Positions 55,801 to 63,967 of a stretch of 64,000 nucleotides of DNA are shown one piece after another. The notes beneath the pieces are model-generated. The model was not told the DNA's origin. It saw only the letters and a program-made list of their open reading frames with translations, and made no database searches. The DNA comes from a virus. The stretch is from IMG/VR virus record IMGVR_UViG_3300042516_003202; one strand, given 5' to 3'. Position 1 is the first letter of the stretch, and each line of letters opens with the position of its first letter. Both the position numbers and the translations under genes were made by a program.

Positions 55801-56142
55801 TTAACGATAAAGGTATCTTAAGTTATAATTGTCGGAATTTAAGTATTTTAATATCTCAAGTGCGATTAATTTGGGATTTCCATCACCACAAGTGTATACA
55901 TCTATTGCCAAACACCCATTTTCTGGCCAAGTATGACACGAGACATGACTTTCTGCGAGTGCAATCACAATTGTACACCCCTGAGGAATGAAACAATGCG
56001 AGAAAACGTTCAAAATAGTCATTTTTGCACGTTCAATACCACGTATCATAGCATTTTGAAGCGATTCTAGGTCATTAATCGCTTCAAAATCAACATCGTA
56101 CACCTCTAAGAGCAGGTGATTACCCATCGAAAACTGTTCCAA
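55801..56142 (-). CDS. speD: Pyruvoyl-dependent S-adenosylmethionine decarboxylase proenzyme
   Basis: PQGCT...LAE|SHVSCHTWPE..DVYTCG self-cleavage motif. Confidence 0.9.
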   Translation of the reverse strand: MEQFSMGNHLLLEVYDVDFEAINDLESLQNAMIRGIERAKMTILNVFSHCFIPQGCTIVIALAESHVSCHTWPENGCLAIDVYTCGDGNPKLIALEILKYLNSDNYNLRYLYR

Positions 56143-56162
56143 CGCACAAAAATCGCAAAAAT

Positions 56163-56618
56163 CTATTTATTACGTATTTTTTGGACCATTTCATAGTCCT
56201 GTTCTAGAATTTTCTTCAAATATTCGTCTTCCCACAGATCATAATAGTTGGTTTTTGCTAAAATTGCTCTCATTTTTGTTAAAAATTGAGAATCTTGATA
56301 CAAAATTAGATTATATTTTCCATTATTAGTTTGAACTCCATTAATAAAACTATCTTCATCACGAAAATCGTCAAAAAACTTATATTTTGGGTATAATTTG
56401 TTTAATTCTTCTATTTTTTGATAACCGTATTCGAGATCTAAATCATCTTCGACAATAAAAATAACGACACCAAACTCTTCTTCAAGAGGTTTAATGTCGT
56501 TTATTGAACAATTAACTATTTTATACGTATTTGCCTTTGCGAAGGGGCATACAGAATGCCCCTTTAGATCTGGATGAGATTTTTGAATAGTTTTTATCCA
56601 ATTTTCCAGATCTTTCAT
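56163..56618 (-). CDS. Hypothetical protein (CPFAK motif, DUF1415-like)
   Basis: GHSVCPFAK; 151 aa. Confidence 0.65.
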   Translation of the reverse strand: MKDLENWIKTIQKSHPDLKGHSVCPFAKANTYKIVNCSINDIKPLEEEFGVVIFIVEDDLDLEYGYQKIEELNKLYPKYKFFDDFRDEDSFINGVQTNNGKYNLILYQDSQFLTKMRAILAKTNYYDLWEDEYLKKILEQDYEMVQKIRNK

Positions 56619-56621
56619 ATA

Positions 56622-56777
56622 TCAACCTTTACCTTGACCTCTGTAAGGTTTACGAGCCTTGTTGCGAGACGTCGCAGAATACTTAGTGCCATCTCCATCA
56701 CCCTGCCGAGTTTTCTTCGGAGGACCGGGAATATAAGACTCGCGCTTGTTCAGTCCGCCTTTTGCTTTTGCTGCCAT
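56622..56777 (-). CDS. 51-aa very basic protein (MAAKAKGGLNKRESYIPGPPKKTRQGDGDGTKYSATSRNKARKPYRGQGKG)
   Basis: Manual translation; GGAGA SD upstream. Confidence 0.75.
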   Translation of the reverse strand: MAAKAKGGLNKRESYIPGPPKKTRQGDGDGTKYSATSRNKARKPYRGQGKG

Positions 56778-56779
56778 AG

Positions 56780-56950
56780 TTATTCTCCTATAATTTCAGT
56801 TTCAAGTTCTTCTGGTTTTGGAGAACCTGTCTTGTAAAATTGAATTGACAGATCCTCCATAGTTTGAAAATATTCTTCCTCTGTAAGATTAGTATAAATT
56901 TTACGCCCCTTACAGAGAATATTATACCTTTCGTCAGATTTGTTAGACAT
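56780..56950 (-). CDS. 56-aa conserved hypothetical protein
   Basis: MSNKSDERYNILCKGRKIY; TGATG overlap with upstream gene. Confidence 0.7.
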   Translation of the reverse strand: MSNKSDERYNILCKGRKIYTNLTEEEYFQTMEDLSIQFYKTGSPKPEELETEIIGE

Positions 56951-57711
56951 CAAATAACTCTTGTTTTTTCGTGACCAACTCGGATACGTGGATCGCACCA
57001 AATTTCAAATCCTGCTTCTTTTGCATCCAAACAGAAACTGACATCTTCGCCGCACATATCCTGAACCTCCCCAGATTCAAAAATTTGCATCTTAGGGGCA
57101 AACCATGGATACTTCATTTCAGGGTGTTCAAATACACCATGCTTAATCAGCAACCAACCAAATCCAGTGTAATCTACTGTAAATGGTTTTCTGCGATTTT
57201 TCATGGTTTCTAGAGTTTCATGATTCATGACTCCTCCATTACCACGGAAATCTTCTTCGTCTAACCAGTGAGCAACTGAAGTGGTCATTCCATCTTCTGT
57301 ACAATACCAACCGGCAGCAATATCTTTCTCCATTAAAACTAACTGAAGAAATGTTTGTGTGCTGAATACAATGTCAGAATCTATCCAAAGTTGGTAATCA
57401 TACTGTAGCTTACCGTCCCATGGAAGCTGATCTGGACCTCTTAATACGTTTGCTCCAAGGCACTTGCAGCGAGCAAAATTTACCATGGAACTATAATCTT
57501 GGGAGATTTGAATACTTGCACCAATTTGGACAAGATCAAAACATAATTGAACAAAATTCTTTAAAAATGTGTAAGAAACTCCTCTTCCAGGAAGACAAAA
57601 TACAATTGACTTTCCTCTAAGCATTTCTTTTGCTTTTTCATAATCAAACTCTGGTTCTTGCGAATTTGATGCTGTGGGAGTTTTTGCTTTTATAGTAAAT
57701 CCTTTAGCCAT
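56950..57711 (-). CDS. GT-A fold glycosyltransferase-like protein
   Basis: WIDSDIVF (DxD), YTGFGWLLIK, GEDVSFC, GHEK. Confidence 0.8.
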   Translation of the reverse strand: MAKGFTIKAKTPTASNSQEPEFDYEKAKEMLRGKSIVFCLPGRGVSYTFLKNFVQLCFDLVQIGASIQISQDYSSMVNFARCKCLGANVLRGPDQLPWDGKLQYDYQLWIDSDIVFSTQTFLQLVLMEKDIAAGWYCTEDGMTTSVAHWLDEEDFRGNGGVMNHETLETMKNRRKPFTVDYTGFGWLLIKHGVFEHPEMKYPWFAPKMQIFESGEVQDMCGEDVSFCLDAKEAGFEIWCDPRIRVGHEKTRVI

Positions 57712-58094: not shown

Positions 58095-58357
58095 TAAAAT
58101 ATTCTTAATTTTCTTTCAATTTTATATATTATTTTTATTTTTTTAGTCAACCTTTTGGGTAAATTTTACTGGGGGAATTTTTTTTACTTTAAGGTAATTA
58201 TAAGTCTTGTTTGGGTAACACTTTATAGATTAGGGGATCCATTGGTTTTTAGCCCCACGGCCGCCGCCATCACGATACCGTTATACGATAATACTGCTGT
58301 TTGGCACGAACGAATGGGGGTGTGGTATCACGATACTGTTATGCCCGCATGTGCCAA

Positions 58358-58392
58358 ATAAAAAAAAGGGAGGGCGTCGCCGCCCCCCTGCT
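58358..58392 (-). terminator. Rho-independent terminator closing the GC-rich array
   Basis: Minus strand GC stem (ggggggcg-gcga-cgccctccc) followed by T8. Confidence 0.8.
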
Positions 58393-58396
58393 GCTC

Positions 58397-58588
58397 TCAC
58401 TTCACGTCGCCCAGGGCGCTGTTCGTGGTGCTCATGCGGGTGCCGCGTGAACCAGCGGCGCCGCCGTGGGTGCGAACGCGGGTGCTGCCGCCCTTGATCT
58501 GGTTCGCCCAACGGAGGGCGCGGGCACCGTGCGCCACGGGCAGGCGGGTGATGGTGAACTGGATGCCGTCGATGGTGGTGGTGGTCAT
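58397..58588 (-). CDS. Cassette 1: 63-aa basic protein (MTTTTIDGIQFTITRLPVAHGARA...)
   Basis: ATG directly after the conserved leader; TTGACG-17-TACAAT promoter at 58589-58650. Confidence 0.75.
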   Translation of the reverse strand: MTTTTIDGIQFTITRLPVAHGARALRWANQIKGGSTRVRTHGGAAGSRGTRMSTTNSALGDVK

Positions 58589-58657
58589 CGGGTGCGGTGC
58601 GGTGTGCTCTGGAATTGTAGACGATGGAGGGGCAGGCGTCAACCTGCCCCGCAGGGG

Positions 58658-58918
58658 TCAGGCGGCGATCTGCTGCAGGTCGCCGTTGCGGCGGGCGTCG
58701 CTGATCAGGCGCCCCAGGGAGAGGCCCAGCAGGTCGGGCGAGGAGATCACCTCTGCCAGGTGAGCAGCGAAGGCGGGGGTGGCATCGAACCCGTAGGCAC
58801 GGTCGGCGCTGCTCTGGAAGATGATCTCAACAGCGGTGCCGTCGATCTCAACGTTGGCGATGGCGCTGCTCTGCTCGGTGGTGAAGGAGCGGAAGATGGG
58901 GGCGGTAGCGGTGGTCAT
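58658..58918 (-). CDS. Cassette 2: KTSC-like domain protein (86 aa)
   Basis: SSAIANVEID..VEIIFQS..RAYGF...SLGRLI. Confidence 0.65.
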   Translation of the reverse strand: MTTATAPIFRSFTTEQSSAIANVEIDGTAVEIIFQSSADRAYGFDATPAFAAHLAEVISSPDLLGLSLGRLISDARRNGDLQQIAA

Positions 58919-58987
58919 GAGGTGCGGTTGCGTGTGCTTGAGAATTGTACCATGGAAAGGGGGCGCCCTTGGGCACCCCCGTGGGGG

Positions 58988-59230
58988 TCAGAAGTTGTCT
59001 GCCACGTCCCAGCGAATCACCTGCAGGTCAGGGCTGAGGCGGGCGCAGGTCTCCCATGCCTGCTGGGCGGTGGGTGCCATGTAGGCCATGACCTCATGGC
59101 GCTGGCGGCGGGTGTTCCAACCGCTGAACAGGAACTTGTACTCCTGCTCCTCAGCGAACACGTCTTCCCAGTCCTGCTCGGTGGGGATGTACGCTTCGTC
59201 GATCTGGGCGTAGTCGGTGAAGGCGGTCAT
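58988..59230 (-). CDS. Cassette 3: 80-aa protein (MTAFTDYAQIDEAYIPTEQDW...)
   Basis: ATG after leader; N-terminus shared with 63476-63652. Confidence 0.75.
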   Translation of the reverse strand: MTAFTDYAQIDEAYIPTEQDWEDVFAEEQEYKFLFSGWNTRRQRHEVMAYMAPTAQQAWETCARLSPDLQVIRWDVADNF

Positions 59231-59299
59231 CGGGTGTGGTGCGGTTTGCTCTGGAATTCTACAGGATGGGAGGGCAGGGGTCAACCTGCCCCTGGAGGA

Positions 59300-59560
59300 T
59301 CAGATGCCTGCCACGGCAGCAGCGATGCGGTCCCGCTTGCGGATCGCGGTGGGCACGATGAACCACAGGTCGCGCTTCCCATTATCGGAGCGGGTGGCAT
59401 CCAGAACGCCTGCCTTCTCAAGGTCGACCATGAGGGCGTGGATGGTGCCCTTATGGCGGCGGGGGTCCATGCCCATGGCGCGAACCAGGTCGCTGCAGGT
59501 CATCGGGCCGTCGTTGATCAGGCGGGTGCGGATCGCGGTGCGGATGATGGAGGTCAGCAT
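59300..59560 (-). CDS. Cassette 4: winged-helix DNA-binding protein (86 aa)
   Basis: GPMTCSDLVRAMGM...TIHALMVDLEKAGVL...RDLWFI. Confidence 0.7.
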   Translation of the reverse strand: MLTSIIRTAIRTRLINDGPMTCSDLVRAMGMDPRRHKGTIHALMVDLEKAGVLDATRSDNGKRDLWFIVPTAIRKRDRIAAAVAGI

Positions 59561-59631
59561 CTGAGCGGGGTGCGGTGTGCTTGAGAATTCTACAGCATGG
59601 GAGGGGGCACCCGTGGGCACCCCCGTGGGGG

Positions 59632-59811
59632 TCAGCGGAGGCGCTGCAGGTCGATCAGGCAATCCGCGAAGGAGTTGCTGCCGTTGATCTGCAGCGCCGC
59701 TGCTGCAACCGCTTCCTTGAGGGTCGCTGCCTGGATCGTGAGGATCTCAGACTCGATGCCCTCGGCACCGATCCAGGTGGCGTCAAAGCGGAAGGTGGTG
59801 GCGGTGGTCAT
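59632..59811 (-). CDS. Cassette 5: 59-aa hypothetical (MTTATTFRFDATWIG...)
   Basis: ATG after promoter module; TGA in junction box. Confidence 0.7.
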   Translation of the reverse strand: MTTATTFRFDATWIGAEGIESEILTIQAATLKEAVAAAALQINGSNSFADCLIDLQRLR

Positions 59812-59879
59812 GGCGCTCTGCCGTTGGTACCTGAGAATTCTACAGCATGGGGGGCAGGCGTCAACCTGCCCCGTGAGGA

Positions 59880-60071
59880 TCAGAAGCGCACTGCCCAGTT
59901 CGGGTCGGTGAGGCAGTTGACCCAGGCGCACCAGGTGCCGTTGCTGCTCACGCAGAACAGGTCGTTACCCTTGCGCTGCTCAACCACCACCACGGGGTCG
60001 CCTGCCATCTGGTTTGCCAGGCGGTTTTTCGCCTTGCTGCTGATCGGGGTCAGGGTCACGGTCATGGTCAT
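59880..60071 (-). CDS. Cassette 6: 63-aa cyanophage-type hypothetical (PISSKAKNRLANQM...)
   Basis: ATG after leader; TGA in CTGATCCTCAC. Confidence 0.75.
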   Translation of the reverse strand: MTMTVTLTPISSKAKNRLANQMAGDPVVVVEQRKGNDLFCVSSNGTWCAWVNCLTDPNWAVRF

Positions 60072-60099
60072 CGGATCGGTTGCGGTTGAGAGAATTCTA

Positions 60100-60297
60100 T
60101 CAGGGCATGGGGCAGTCACCGAACATCTCCTCCCACAGGTCGATGATGCGTTCGGGTTGGCGTGGAGCAGGTGCCCACTCCAGGGGGCAGGCAACGCCCA
60201 GGCGGGTGATCGGGTGTTCGGTGTAGGTATTGTCGTCGCTGCAGTAGGAGAGGCTCACGTCCTGGTAGGGGGTGCCGATGCGGATGCCAGTCTTCAT
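60100..60297 (-). CDS. Cassette 7: 65-aa hypothetical
   Basis: ORF track; ATG after leader; C-terminus overlaps a decayed repeat. Confidence 0.65.
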   Translation of the reverse strand: MKTGIRIGTPYQDVSLSYCSDDNTYTEHPITRLGVACPLEWAPAPRQPERIIDLWEEMFGDCPMP

Positions 60298-60333
60298 GGG
60301 AGGCGGTGCGGTGTGCTCTGGAATTGTAGACGA

Positions 60334-60492
60334 TCAGCGGCGGGTGTCACCACACCATGCAGGGTCTGCCTGGCAGAGTGCTTCGGCGGTCTGCTCCTGG
60401 TAGACGTTGATCGTGGCGTTTGCACGGTGCAGCGTAACGGTGCCCAGCAGCACGGCAAAGGCGGCAAAGGCGGTGGGGAGGATGTGGCGCAT
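60334..60492 (-). CDS. Cassette 8: 52-aa signal-peptide/membrane peptide (MRHILPTAFAAFAVLLGTVTLHRANA...LCQADPAWCGDTRR)
   Basis: Manual translation; hydrophobic N-terminus, AxA site, Cys pair. Confidence 0.65.
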   Translation of the reverse strand: MRHILPTAFAAFAVLLGTVTLHRANATINVYQEQTAEALCQADPAWCGDTRR

Positions 60493-60546
60493 GGTTGGGG
60501 GGGGTGTAGGTAGGGAGGGAAGGGGGGCGGTTGCCCCCCGCAGAGA

Positions 60547-60741
60547 TCAGAACAGCAGGTTGGCGATGCTCTGGAGAACGTCGCCGTACTCACCCACGAT
60601 GTTGCCAGCAGCGTCGCGAATGTAGGCATAGTCGCCGCTCTCATCGTGCATGGAGAAACAGAGGTCCATGGCACGGTCCAGGTCGGTCACGGTCTCTGCC
60701 TCACCGAGGGCAGGGCAGGCAACGTAGAAGGTGGTGGTCAT
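60547..60741 (-). CDS. Cassette 9: 64-aa acidic hypothetical (MTTTFYVACPALGEAE...)
   Basis: ATG after leader. Confidence 0.75.
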   Translation of the reverse strand: MTTTFYVACPALGEAETVTDLDRAMDLCFSMHDESGDYAYIRDAAGNIVGEYGDVLQSIANLLF

Positions 60742-60809
60742 GAGGTGCGGTGCGGTGTGCTTGAGAATTGTAGCGTATGGAGGGGGCACCCGTGGGTGCC
60801 CCGTGAGGA

Positions 60810-60989
60810 TCAGGCGTCCATCGCCTCCTTCAGTGCCTGGTACGCTGCCAGGTAGTAGTCGGCGTCGGCGTCGTTGCCCTTGAGGCGCTCATCACATGCC
60901 AGGCAGAGCACAGCAGTGCGCAGGGTGCTCCAGCGTGCCTCAGGCAGGGTCACGGTCTTCAGGGTTTGGGGCATCCAGGTGGTGGTCAT
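60810..60989 (-). CDS. Cassette 10: 59-aa hypothetical (MTTTWMPQTLKTVTLPEARWSTLRTAVLCLACDE...)
   Basis: Manual translation; not in ORF track. Confidence 0.75.
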   Translation of the reverse strand: MTTTWMPQTLKTVTLPEARWSTLRTAVLCLACDERLKGNDADADYYLAAYQALKEAMDA

Positions 60990-61056
60990 GAGTCCTGTGC
61001 GGTTTGCTCTGGAATTCTACAGCATGGGGGGCAGGCGTCAACCTGCCCCGTGAGGA

Positions 61057-61221
61057 TCAGTCAGCGTAGAGGCGGCGGAAGTCCTCCACGAACTCACGTG
61101 CCTGGTCGCCGCTCATGTTGCACACCATCTCACGGGCGACGGTTTCCCAGGAGAATTCGTCTGCCAGGTCATAGATCGCGGAGCGTGCCTCAGAGGCGGT
61201 CAGGCGGGTGGCGGTGGTCAT
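61057..61221 (-). CDS. Cassette 11: 54-aa helical protein (MTTATRLTASEARSAIYDLADEFSWETVAREMVCNMSGDQAREFVEDFRRLYAD)
   Basis: Manual translation; not in ORF track. Confidence 0.75.
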   Translation of the reverse strand: MTTATRLTASEARSAIYDLADEFSWETVAREMVCNMSGDQAREFVEDFRRLYAD

Positions 61222-61290
61222 GAGGTGCGGTGCGGTGTGCTTGAGAACTGTAGCGTATGGGGTGGGGCACCCGTGGGTGCCCCGTGAGGA

Positions 61291-61470
61291 TCAGGCGCAG
61301 ATGACCTCTGCCATCTTGTGCAGCAGGGCGTCAACCCGCTCCTGGCAGCGTGCCTTGTAGGCAGGGTGAGCAAGGCGCAGGTCGATCAGGGCCTCCTGCA
61401 GGTGCGCTTCCAGGTAGCGGCGCTGAGCAGCGGCGCTGAGCAGATCAAAGGCGGGGGAGATGGCGATCAT
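61291..61470 (-). CDS. Cassette 12: 59-aa helical protein (MIAISPAFDLLSAAAQRRYLEAHLQEALIDL...)
   Basis: Manual translation; not in ORF track. Confidence 0.75.
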   Translation of the reverse strand: MIAISPAFDLLSAAAQRRYLEAHLQEALIDLRLAHPAYKARCQERVDALLHKMAEVICA

Positions 61471-61537
61471 CGGATCGGTTGCGGTTGCTTGAGAACTATA
61501 GCGTATGGGAGGGGCACCCGTGGGTGCCCCGTGAGGA

Positions 61538-61741
61538 TCAGTCTGCCAGGTTTAACCACAGGGCGTCGGCAACGGCGCTGCCAGCGCCCAGGATGTCGTC
61601 GCGAACGATCATGCGCAGTGCCTCTGCGCCATCGGGCAGGCGGTGGATGGTGCGGATCCAAGAGGCGCCCAGCAGGTTGCCGCGGCCTTCGGAGCACTGG
61701 GCGATCAGGGCAGCAAGGGCGCGAACGTCGGCGTGAGTCAT
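61538..61741 (-). CDS. Cassette 13: 67-aa hypothetical (MTHADVRALAALIAQC...)
   Basis: ATG after leader. Confidence 0.7.
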   Translation of the reverse strand: MTHADVRALAALIAQCSEGRGNLLGASWIRTIHRLPDGAEALRMIVRDDILGAGSAVADALWLNLAD

Positions 61742-61805
61742 CGGTCGGTTACGGTTGCTTGAGAACTGTAGCAGGTAAAGGGGGGGCGGTTGCCCCCCGT
61801 GAGGA

Positions 61806-62066
61806 TCAGGCGAACCAGCGGCCTGCGTCGTCGATCCCACCTGCCCAGCGGCGCTGGGTGCTCTCACCTGCGGGGATCTTCTCCAGATCAACCCAGCGGC
61901 GGCGCTCAATACCCTGCGACATGGGAGGGAAGGAGATGGTGCGATCCTCCAGGCGGCAGGCAAGGGGGGTGGCAGCAGCATGGTAGCGGGCGCTGCCGCC
62001 CCAACCAATGTAGACAGTGCCGTGAGCAGAACCCTGGCAGATGTGGTGGGAGGTGGGGAGGGTCAT
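61806..62066 (-). CDS. Cassette 14: 86-aa hypothetical
   Basis: ORF track; preceded by half-hairpin + TAGTAT. Confidence 0.6.
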   Translation of the reverse strand: MTLPTSHHICQGSAHGTVYIGWGGSARYHAAATPLACRLEDRTISFPPMSQGIERRRWVDLEKIPAGESTQRRWAGGIDDAGRWFA

Positions 62067-62164
62067 GGTCGGGAAGCGGTGCGGGGTCCGTTTGCCCCGC
62101 TTGAGAGAATACTAGGCGATGGAGGGGGGCACCCGTGGCAGATACCGCACAAGTTTACAAACGT

Positions 62165-62365
62165 TCACACTTCGCGGGTGCTGCACCATCCGCTGATCGG
62201 GCATCGCGGGAGGCGGGCAGCACCGTGGCGATCGTAGGCATCCTGCTGCACGATCCCTGCCAGTTCGGCGGTGCCCACGTGCTGGGCAGATTGCTTGCCG
62301 CTGGCGTGAGTGATCACCCATACGGTCTGGCGGGTGTGGAGGTTGCTGGCGATGTTGAAACGCAT
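62165..62365 (-). CDS. Cassette 15: 66-aa hypothetical (MRFNIASNLHTRQTVWVITHASG...)
   Basis: ATG after leader-like sequence. Confidence 0.65.
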   Translation of the reverse strand: MRFNIASNLHTRQTVWVITHASGKQSAQHVGTAELAGIVQQDAYDRHGAARLPRCPISGWCSTREV

Positions 62366-62461
62366 TGGGGGCGGTGCTGGTGTGCTCTGGTGAAGGGGTG
62401 GAGGCAAAGGGGAAGGGCAGAGCCCCTCCGCTGTGCCACCTAGCGGGTTGGCACAGCCCGA

Positions 62462-62611
62462 TCAGAAGTCGATGGCGTTGAGTGTAGGTTCTGCACCATA
62501 CTCATCACATTCGTCAACACTATCCCCCAGAACAATAGAGTCAAGAATTTGGAGGATTTGGTCGCCGTTGTTGCCAGAGCGGAGGAGAGAAAGCGCAAGG
62601 TCGCGGGTCAT
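62462..62611 (-). CDS. Cassette 16: 49-aa cyanophage-type small protein (MTRDLALSLLRSGNNGDQILQILDSI...)
   Basis: Manual translation; N-terminus resembles a small protein family I recall from cyanomyoviruses. Confidence 0.75.
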   Translation of the reverse strand: MTRDLALSLLRSGNNGDQILQILDSIVLGDSVDECDEYGAEPTLNAIDF

Positions 62612-62668
62612 CGTAGTTTTGAAATTAGGGTTACTGGGTGTCTTTAAGGGCGCACCCGTTCCCGTTGA

Positions 62669-62830
62669 TCAGCGTTCCAGTTGTGCCAGCGAACTGGGGG
62701 CGATGTGAGAAGGCGAACCGCAGGAGCGATAGAACTCAACCATGCGATCTGCCTCCTCTTTAGTGTTGAACCACTGGGAGCGCCACTCACACTGATTATA
62801 GGGGGTTTGGTAGCGAACTTCGAAGCGCAT
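62669..62830 (-). CDS. Cassette 17: 53-aa cyanophage-type protein (MRFEVRYQTPYNQCEWRSQWFNTKEEADRMVEFYRSCGSP...)
   Basis: Manual translation; not in ORF track. Confidence 0.8.
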   Translation of the reverse strand: MRFEVRYQTPYNQCEWRSQWFNTKEEADRMVEFYRSCGSPSHIAPSSLAQLER

Positions 62831-62896
62831 GAGGTTTGGGTGGTGAACTTGTACAGTGTAGCACGTGGTGGGGGGCAGGAGCGCCCCCCGTGAGGA

Positions 62897-63163
62897 TCAG
62901 AGACCGAATACGTCGGCGTTGATCTCTGCTCGGTTGATCTCAGGATCGTTCCACATCACACCATCAGGAGTTTGCTTGCTGCCACAGTCATAGAGCACTT
63001 CGATGAGATCCTCATAACAGCAAACGTCACCGTTTTTGATCGTGTTGTAGACACCCTCATCGTTGTTGATGTAGAGTGCAACATTCCAGGTCTTGTAGTT
63101 AGTCCAGTCGCCGTAAGCAACATCCAGCAGGTTGGTCTGGTGAGTGCGGGTTGCGGTTGCCAT
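62897..63163 (-). CDS. Cassette 18: 88-aa phage protein (WTNYKTWNVALYINNDEG motif)
   Basis: ORF track; motif common in phage early genes. Confidence 0.8.
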   Translation of the reverse strand: MATATRTHQTNLLDVAYGDWTNYKTWNVALYINNDEGVYNTIKNGDVCCYEDLIEVLYDCGSKQTPDGVMWNDPEINRAEINADVFGL

Positions 63164-63228
63164 GGGGTTCGGTGTTGAACTTGTTCAGTGTAGCACGTGG
63201 TGGGGGGCAGGAGCGCCCCCCAGGGGGA

Positions 63229-63408
63229 TCAGATGGCGCTGGTGCCCTTGCTCACCCAGAGTGCCAGGCGCATGGTGCTTGCCTTGCTCACCTGCTTCAC
63301 GGTGCGCCCGTGTGCCAGGGCAGCAGTCTTCAGGCAGGTGCGCTTGGCGTCCTCATTGCCCACCAGGATCAGGCGAGCGTACTGGAGCAGTTGCTGTTGG
63401 GTTGCCAT
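63229..63408 (-). CDS. Cassette 19: 59-aa basic protein (MATQQQLLQYARLILVGNEDAKR...)
   Basis: Manual translation. Confidence 0.7.
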   Translation of the reverse strand: MATQQQLLQYARLILVGNEDAKRTCLKTAALAHGRTVKQVSKASTMRLALWVSKGTSAI

Positions 63409-63475
63409 GGTCGGTTCGGGTGTTGAACGTGTTCAGTATAGCATGGGTTGGGGGCGCCCAGCGCCCCCAGGGGGA

Positions 63476-63652
63476 TCAGTCTTCAGGTCCGAAGCAGCAC
63501 TCCAGGGAGAATGCTTCCAGTTCCTGGTCGTCGTCCCAACCGTAGAGGTCCCAACCTGGGCCCTCCTCCTCATCACACACGGCGTTCCAGTCATCCTCAG
63601 TGGGCACGAACTGCTCGTCGATCTGAGCGTAGTCGGTGAAGGCGTAGGTCAT
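63476..63652 (-). CDS. Cassette 20: 58-aa extremely acidic protein (MTYAFTDYAQIDEQFVPTEDDW...)
   Basis: Manual translation; 19 D/E, no K/R. Confidence 0.75.
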   Translation of the reverse strand: MTYAFTDYAQIDEQFVPTEDDWNAVCDEEEGPGWDLYGWDDDQELEAFSLECCFGPED

Positions 63653-63727
63653 GGGGTGGATCCCTCAAGAACAAACGTAGTATGGCATGGGGGTGGGGGG
63701 CGTTTCAACCCCCCGTGTGCCAGTTGA

Positions 63728-63967
63728 TCAGGCGGCGATCACCTGCAGTTGCTCGCTGCGGATCGCGGTGTTGATGAAGCGCCCCACGGATTCGCCCTGT
63801 GCGATAGTGTCATTCACTTGTGCAACAAACTGTTCAACATCAGCAACACCGTAGGTATAGTCACGCCCACCGTTGAAGGTGATGGTCACTTGCCCACTGT
63901 TGCTGTTTTGATCAGTCTTTGCAGCAGTCATGTTCTCGATGGCGCTGGATTCGAATTTGGTAAACAT
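63728..63967 (-). CDS. Cassette 21: KTSC-like domain protein (79 aa)
   Basis: SSAIENM...VTITFNGGRDYTY...SVGRFINTAIR. Confidence 0.7.
   Translation of the reverse strand: MFTKFESSAIENMTAAKTDQNSNSGQVTITFNGGRDYTYGVADVEQFVAQVNDTIAQGESVGRFINTAIRSEQLQVIAA

Follow-up and report, generated by a model that had tools for sequence, protein, structure and literature searches.

We identified an array of small genes with the hallmarks of shuffled single-gene cassettes in a 64,000-nucleotide stretch of viral DNA (IMG/VR record IMGVR_UViG_3300042516_003202; this whole stretch is hereafter the window). The array occupies positions 58397-63967 on the minus strand and consists of 21 open reading frames (ORFs), named o1 to o21 in the order in which they are read, with copies of a hairpin-bearing module filling most of the 20 gaps. 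With a probability of roughly 0.8, we consider it the early-gene hypervariable region of a freshwater T4-like cyanomyovirus (Kyanoviridae-type), composed of cassettes that resemble promoter early stem-loop (PeSL) cassettes (Arbiol 2010, PMC2839356; Comeau 2014, PMC4122927). Each module would serve three roles. It would supply the next gene with a host-sigma70-type promoter, through either a -35 element at the hairpin apex or an extended -10; its hairpin would mark the 3' end of the preceding mRNA as a pause, an attenuator or a stabiliser; and short patches shared between out-of-register modules would let crossovers add, delete, swap and reorder genes. Such crossovers could occur within one genome or between co-infecting phages, would leave expression intact, and would probably use the phage's own T4-type machinery.

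A sequence-only reading of this DNA had proposed PeSL-like shuffling and had asked for a comparison of relatives, which bore the proposal out: cassette content and order differ among relatives, and the changes lie at modules. Relatives were collected with a -10/leader pattern, which replaced an exact 15-mer scan that had returned mostly chance matches; the pattern found the module in 45 viral contigs (the contigs and genomes compared are given here as L numbers), with 205 distinct junctions bearing a -10. These relatives share a pool of ~55 gene families in varied content and order, with 122 distinct gene adjacencies, and 50 of the 350 gene pairs seen repeatedly occur in both orders. Among relatives that are 87-99% identical, single-cassette insertions and deletions are clean at modules. 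For example, L184 has one extra cassette in gap 10-11 (between o10 and o11) and another in gap 14-15, the latter flanked by two copies of a 17-nucleotide (nt) stretch; the same 73-amino-acid (aa) insertion occurs in gap 16-17 of L185 and L187, which come from separate runs; L057 has an additional cassette in gap 17-18 and is missing o19; and in L183 identity jumps from 88% to 99.7% within gap 4-5.

To the sequence-only reading, each promoter and gene formed a self-contained unit. Linkage analysis revised this: the part made up of stop codon and hairpin goes with the gene before it (z about 5 versus about 1), the final leader bases go with the gene after them and the zone from the -10 to +1 goes with both, so that many promoters are hybrids. 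Breakpoints are dispersed, falling just past the stop, in the G-run, in the C-run, at the -10 and at the ATG, and pairs of modules share up to 49 nt exactly. This pattern fits short-homology recombination and not a site-specific or integron system. Contigs also contained skip and back joints with sides of 20-36 nt and 90% likeness, including one back-joint at o3 (36-nt side, from a related strain, seen in contigs only); these were not used as evidence for circles.

Two further observations concern individual cassettes. The last codons of o15 (60100-60112) are identical to the module spacer in L188, which suggests that the truncated gap 15-16 may stem from a crossover that joined coding DNA to module DNA. 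At L184:4323-4600, an o20 cassette has no start codon and keeps its promoter; it is apparently silenced.

The modules have a regular anatomy. The pattern at their 5' end occurs 13 times, always within the array, against 0.03 occurrences expected by chance. The stem begins ~7 nt past the stop codon and ends 8-10 nt ahead of the -10, and the leader is ~18 nt long and C/A-rich. The claim that nearly every gap is one ~70-bp module stood for the 13 of 20 gaps that are full modules, while the other 7 are variant (gaps 1-2 and 7-8), reduced to -10 and leader (14-15 and 15-16) or have a hairpin without a clear -10 (5-6, 6-7 and 13-14); about a quarter of the array genes are without a full module. The exact 11-mer CTGATCCTCAC, put forward as the common element, was present as an exact copy in only 7 of 20 gaps.

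Judged by sequence, each module resembles a promoter of the host sigma70 type placed to drive the gene that follows. In relatives' modules, TTGAC, where found, lay at the hairpin apex in 55 of 56 cases and 16-18 nt from the -10 in 55 of 56, and a purine follows the -10 at position +7 in 99%, as would be expected of a start site. An extended -10 TG occurred in 3 of 50 modules with a -35 and in 34 of 72 without one (p=7e-7, de-duplicated, a value that shared ancestry inflates, as it does the other module statistics over relatives). The near-exclusivity of -35 and extended -10 points to sigma70-type promoter logic, and with the -10 and +1 purine it lends the earlier proposal of host RNA polymerase promoters support at this level. 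Only 7 of 171 leaders had a Shine-Dalgarno-like word, and the final 15 nt are 80% C+A, leaving the leaders without a Shine-Dalgarno sequence.

The hairpin itself appears to be maintained. Stems were more stable than shuffled sequences (mean z -2.5), and across 47 distinct types the inner arms paired at 2.81 of 3 positions, compared with 2.06±0.08 after arm shuffling, indicating covariation. An intrinsic terminator in every module was ruled out, as U-tails are mostly lacking (97 of 116 stems had at most 2 T in the following 8 nt). We infer that the G-run/C-run hairpin acts at the 3' end of the upstream mRNA, with the -35 housed in a freely varying loop. In relatives, the module hairpin also follows the last array gene. 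The U-tailed terminator said to close the array is real in the window, but most relatives keep the hairpin there without the U-tail, and a conserved terminal terminator was therefore ruled out.

The features of the array, in reading order, are as follows.

58397-63967, minus strand: cassette array, 21 ORFs and 20 gaps; GC-rich, probable early-gene array
63728-63967, minus: o1, 79 aa, KTSC-like (phrog_4357), o20 paralog
63653-63727, minus: gap 1-2, variant; box-A half site, hairpin with TTGAAA, TG-extended CATACT
63476-63652, minus: o2, 58 aa, acidic; N-terminus paralogous to o19
63409-63475, minus: gap 2-3, full module, extended -10 TATACT
63229-63408, minus: o3, 59 aa, no family
63164-63228, minus: gap 3-4, full module, extended -10 TACACT; extra cassette in L188
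62897-63163, minus: o4, 88 aa, DUF7249 / phrog_871
62831-62896, minus: gap 4-5, full module; block-replacement breakpoint relative to L183
62669-62830, minus: o5, 53 aa
62612-62668, minus: gap 5-6, different conserved hairpin, no -10
62462-62611, minus: o6, 49 aa; S-SRM01 homolog
62366-62461, minus: gap 6-7, full box-A palindrome and hairpin; -10 missing here, present in relatives
62165-62365, minus: o7, 66 aa
62067-62164, minus: gap 7-8, variant (TAGTAT), extra leader hairpin
61806-62066, minus: o8, 86 aa, no family
61742-61805, minus: gap 8-9, full module, extended -10 TACAGT
61538-61741, minus: o9, 67 aa
61471-61537, minus: gap 9-10, full module, TATAGT
61291-61470, minus: o10, 59 aa
61222-61290, minus: gap 10-11, full module; extra cassette in L184
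61057-61221, minus: o11, 54 aa
60990-61056, minus: gap 11-12, full module, TTGACG-16-TAGAAT; 49-nt exact match with gap 16-17
60810-60989, minus: o12, 59 aa
60742-60809, minus: gap 12-13, full module, TACAAT
60547-60741, minus: o13, 64 aa, phrog_25733; 76% to S-RSM4
60493-60546, minus: gap 13-14, hairpin only, no -10
60334-60492, minus: o14, 52 aa, N-terminus hydrophobic
60298-60333, minus: gap 14-15, truncated (-10 and leader); extra cassette in L184
60100-60297, minus: o15, 65 aa
60072-60099, minus: gap 15-16, truncated (-10 and leader)
59880-60071, minus: o16, 63 aa, phrog_1653; S-SRM01 homolog
59812-59879, minus: gap 16-17, full module, TTGACG-16-TAGAAT; extra 73-aa cassette in L185 and L187
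59632-59811, minus: o17, 59 aa; S-SRM01 homolog
59561-59631, minus: gap 17-18, full module; extra cassette in L057
59300-59560, minus: o18, 86 aa, predicted winged helix
59231-59299, minus: gap 18-19, full module, TTGACC-17-TAGAAT
58988-59230, minus: o19, 80 aa; missing in L057, L149 and others
58919-58987, minus: gap 19-20, full module; whole hairpin exchanged in L184, L185, L187 and L188
58658-58918, minus: o20, 86 aa, KTSC-like fold
58589-58657, minus: gap 20-21, full module, TTGACG-17-TACAAT
58397-58588, minus: o21, 63 aa, basic; commonly the final array gene in relatives
58361-58388, minus: terminal G-run/C-run hairpin (stem 58369-58388) with U8 tail

Some gaps hold additional structures. 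The alternative hairpin of gap 5-6, ahead of o6, shows paired changes across relatives, has no Rfam match, and in some relatives substitutes for the usual hairpin within a full promoter. Additional G/C hairpins lie in the 5' leaders of o8 (62080-62100) and o1 (L182:660-690), and these are reused ahead of other genes in relatives (families F19, F34 and F60).

Several explanations compete with PeSL-like shuffling. Every carrier of the module is a metagenomic contig, and blastn found no isolate matching the module at the DNA level, as might be expected if the shuffling, or the array itself, were an artefact of metagenome assembly at repeats. We consider this very improbable: Joint Genome Institute and European Nucleotide Archive assemblies (L181, L182 and L186, one of which may be the source) match the array and its AT-rich flank at 99.9-100%, contigs from other lake runs read through the GC/AT boundary and across several modules, differing at 0-1 positions, the repeats are at most 49 nt long, and other gene adjacencies, which introduce new genes, turn up repeatedly in separate samples. 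The agreement of assemblies through the AT-rich flank also speaks for a genuine array over a chimeric join, which the sequence-only reading had named among the findings that would refute it. Alternatively, the modules could be regulatory repeats only, with indels found there because breaks inside genes are counter-selected and not through homology between modules. The median exact match between modules is indeed 9 nt, exact matches of at least 20 nt occur in only 14 of 190 pairs, and some junctions fall directly after a stop codon or within a gene end. This explanation is nevertheless unlikely, given that insertions are flanked by duplicated module stretches (overlaps of 69, 17 and 16 nt), that hairpins and leaders are exchanged as blocks with linkage passing from the preceding to the following gene along the module, and that reordering is hard without repeated crossover points.

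An integron-like or hairpin-directed process, in which a dedicated recombinase or a hairpin nuclease such as gp46/47 acts at modules and cassettes move as circles, would suit the fixed geometry of stop codon, ~7 nt and stem, the uniform TGA stops, the many breakpoints at the G-run or C-run and the SbcD-like gp47 encoded in the window. It is quite improbable, because breakpoints spread from stop codon to ATG instead of falling at one base, cassettes have their own promoters, and the flanks hold small hypothetical genes and a glycosyltransferase gene with no integrase. A bolder proposal, which we regard as doubtful, is that the hairpin modules are dedicated recombination targets (through, for example, SbcCD-like gp46/47 hairpin cleavage or packaged circles) that would give lake cyanophages a shared, integrase-free library of >50 early micro-protein families, enriched in anti-defence or host-takeover factors, with each swap retuning a promoter by joining a new -35 and hairpin to a new -10 and leader. 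PeSL-like shuffling of early genes, the interpretation that we favour, has its own points against it. Only 4 of the 13 full modules in the window have a -35 matching at 5 of 6 positions, and several have neither a -35 nor an extended -10; shared ancestry inflates the statistics noted above; the o1/o20 homolog in phage P-HM2, PHM2_053, is classed as middle (B) and not early; and near-identical genomes from several samples retain the same gene order, so shuffling is not fast within a strain.

The phage itself is a T4-like cyanomyovirus, which supports the cyanophage identity given by the sequence-only reading. The major capsid protein shares 74-78% identity with those of P-SSM2 and Synechococcus phages, and the window contains portal, scaffold, CobS-like and gp47 (SbcD-like) genes; no tRNA was found in the 64 kb. 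The stretch is present in at least 14 lake or freshwater metagenomes. GC content is 27-44% up to 58 kb of the window and 57-64% inside the array, making the array a GC-rich island in a background of ~30%. It sits upstream of glycosyltransferase-speD-g25-g6-g7, a locus occupied by small-ORF clusters in S-RSM4, S-T4, S-SRM01 and P-HM2. Between the array and g25 (55801-57711) lie a conserved glycosyltransferase gene (phrog_1574), small peptides and a SpeD-like gene. A non-coding element at the GC/AT boundary (58170-58320), 89-93% conserved among relatives and with no match in Rfam, is possibly a packaging, origin or regulatory site; by eye, S-SRM01 and S-RSM4 hold stretches resembling it. The cultured freshwater phage S-SRM01 bears related modules at the locus of the array (L192:4100-11600), together with homologs of o6, o16 and o17 and an inserted HNH endonuclease, and it is usable as a laboratory model for the module system.

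In P-HM2, the early cluster PHM2_056-074 lies upstream of g25 (Thompson 2016, PMC5082946). Matches within this cluster include PHM2_060 for F21, a family present in relatives (E 2e-18), and PHM2_072, a weak match, for the o13 family (E 2e-5). This synteny and homology support the early timing first proposed and suggest that the array is expressed early. The P-HM2 early block contains promoters that carry a palindromic box-A ~38 nt ahead of the -10, some with a hairpin between. We found box-A in gaps 1-2 and 6-7 and upstream of o1 (whose promoter falls just past the window edge and was seen in L181 and L182), as 22 copies 36-38 nt ahead of the -10 in relatives, and in S-SRM01, where it comes together with a G-run hairpin and a leader of the same type. 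Since box-A is shared with the P-HM2 early block and S-SRM01, the module most likely arose from the general cyanomyophage early promoter by amplification and erosion of the box. It is thus probably not "independently styled", as had been supposed, and appears derived from the early promoter found in P-HM2, S-RSM4, S-T4 and S-SRM01.

The 21 minus-strand ORFs of 49-88 aa were confirmed, and independent gene calls on other assemblies gave the same set. All start with ATG and end with TGA, while 21 of 34 core genes end with TAA. Selection on them is purifying: the ratio of nonsynonymous to synonymous polymorphism (pN/pS) was 0.20 overall, and all 18 ORFs that could be compared with homologs showed it. 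Most begin with Met-Thr and are often Thr-rich, so that shared homology reaches into the first codons. Codon use differs sharply from that of core genes, with TTA at 1 of 110 Leu, AGA at 0 of 96 Arg and ATA at 0 of 80 Ile codons, compared with 46%, 60% and 34% of the same amino acids' codons in core genes. The array avoids TTA, AGA, ATA, ACA, TCA, GGA, CCA and GTA, all common in core genes. It retains GCA (28%) and T-ending codons, a pattern that suggests a fit to the host tRNA pool and not GC drift alone. Host-like codons would let early genes be translated at once. TTA and AGA are nearly absent, which connects with the resistance by tRNA loss of Synechococcus WH5701 (PMC11726456) and offers a testable reason for the GC island.

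For the o1/o20 type, structure comparison gave KTSC 7x8c as the best PDB match (Z 5.9, root-mean-square deviation 2.4, 65 residues aligned) and BFVD structure matches that include many KTSC rows, with no Pfam KTSC match; sequence searches of o18 and o20 against PDB gave no match. The top model match of o18 was a Z-alpha domain (Z 10.6), an assignment we rejected as ArsR, MarR and PadR winged helices match equally well; o18 is predicted to be a winged helix, with no finer class. At least three array genes (two KTSC-like, one winged helix) probably encode nucleic-acid-binding folds. PADLOC found no defence-system match for the ten ORFs searched. We hypothesize a host-takeover or anti-defence role for array genes, with takeover suggested only by their timing.

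These results would extend PeSL-type shuffling to cyanophages. The cassette-shuffling principle is already known, which limits the surprise; the junctions here are clean enough for mapping, and the ~55 families form a bounded pool of early micro-proteins under purifying selection that can be screened directly for host-takeover or anti-defence activity in picocyanobacteria. The module belongs to no Rfam family, and we found no published description of such cassettes in cyanophages, within an incomplete coverage of the literature.

Among known systems, integrons consist of single-gene tandem units in variable order, with the stop codon within a hairpin-forming repeat, and the array shares these features. 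Integron cassettes are promoterless, are read from one promoter and recombine at a fixed crossover position through the IntI integrase; array cassettes, in contrast, carry promoters and have no fixed crossover base, and no IntI integrase was found in the flanks adjoining the array. Another comparison is with the early regions of T4-like cyanophages such as P-HM2; that of Syn9 and its early promoter were reportedly treated by Doron in 2016. The array resembles such regions in its locus upstream of g25-g6-g7, its small hypothetical genes, the shared families o1/o20, o4, o6, o13, o16, o17 and F21, and the box-A half site ~37-38 nt ahead of the -10, sometimes with a hairpin between. The marine isolates examined differ in showing a weaker GC shift in the region and fewer, more varied promoters; in the array, little of box-A survives and amplification has brought the hairpin module into nearly every gap.

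The PeSLs of RB49/phi1, T4/PST and KVP40/nt-1, T4-like phages that infect gut bacteria and vibrios, are likewise repeated intergenic composites running from the upstream stop to the next ATG. Both systems have a sigma70-like promoter (here judged from motifs), a polyG-loop-polyC stem as in RB49, including a class that overlaps the -35, and a position beside ORFans in a hypervariable region, with indels and exchanges mapping to the element, including between the -10 and the ATG, where PeSL recombination was found (Arbiol 2010, PMC2839356). PeSLs are further characterised by a stem-loop that ends or attenuates transcription and by excised mini-circles. The array differs in being GC-rich, in having no Shine-Dalgarno sequence and, upstream of the -35, a C/G-rich stop-spacer and stem arm instead of an AT-rich tract, in the alternation of an apex -35 with an extended -10, in nearly one element per gene over 21 genes, in its island of host-like codons and in its cyanophage host. 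Lacking two PeSL features, the AT-rich tract and the Shine-Dalgarno sequence, it is a PeSL-like variant and not a PeSL member. The only published test that we found in a cyanophage concerned the S-PM2 ORFanage, which had too few PeSL-like elements, so that the mechanism was judged unlikely there (Puxty 2015, PMC4503421). Both are cyanomyovirus ORFan clusters with poorly conserved synteny, but the array lineage has PeSL-like elements at high density, with mapped junctions.

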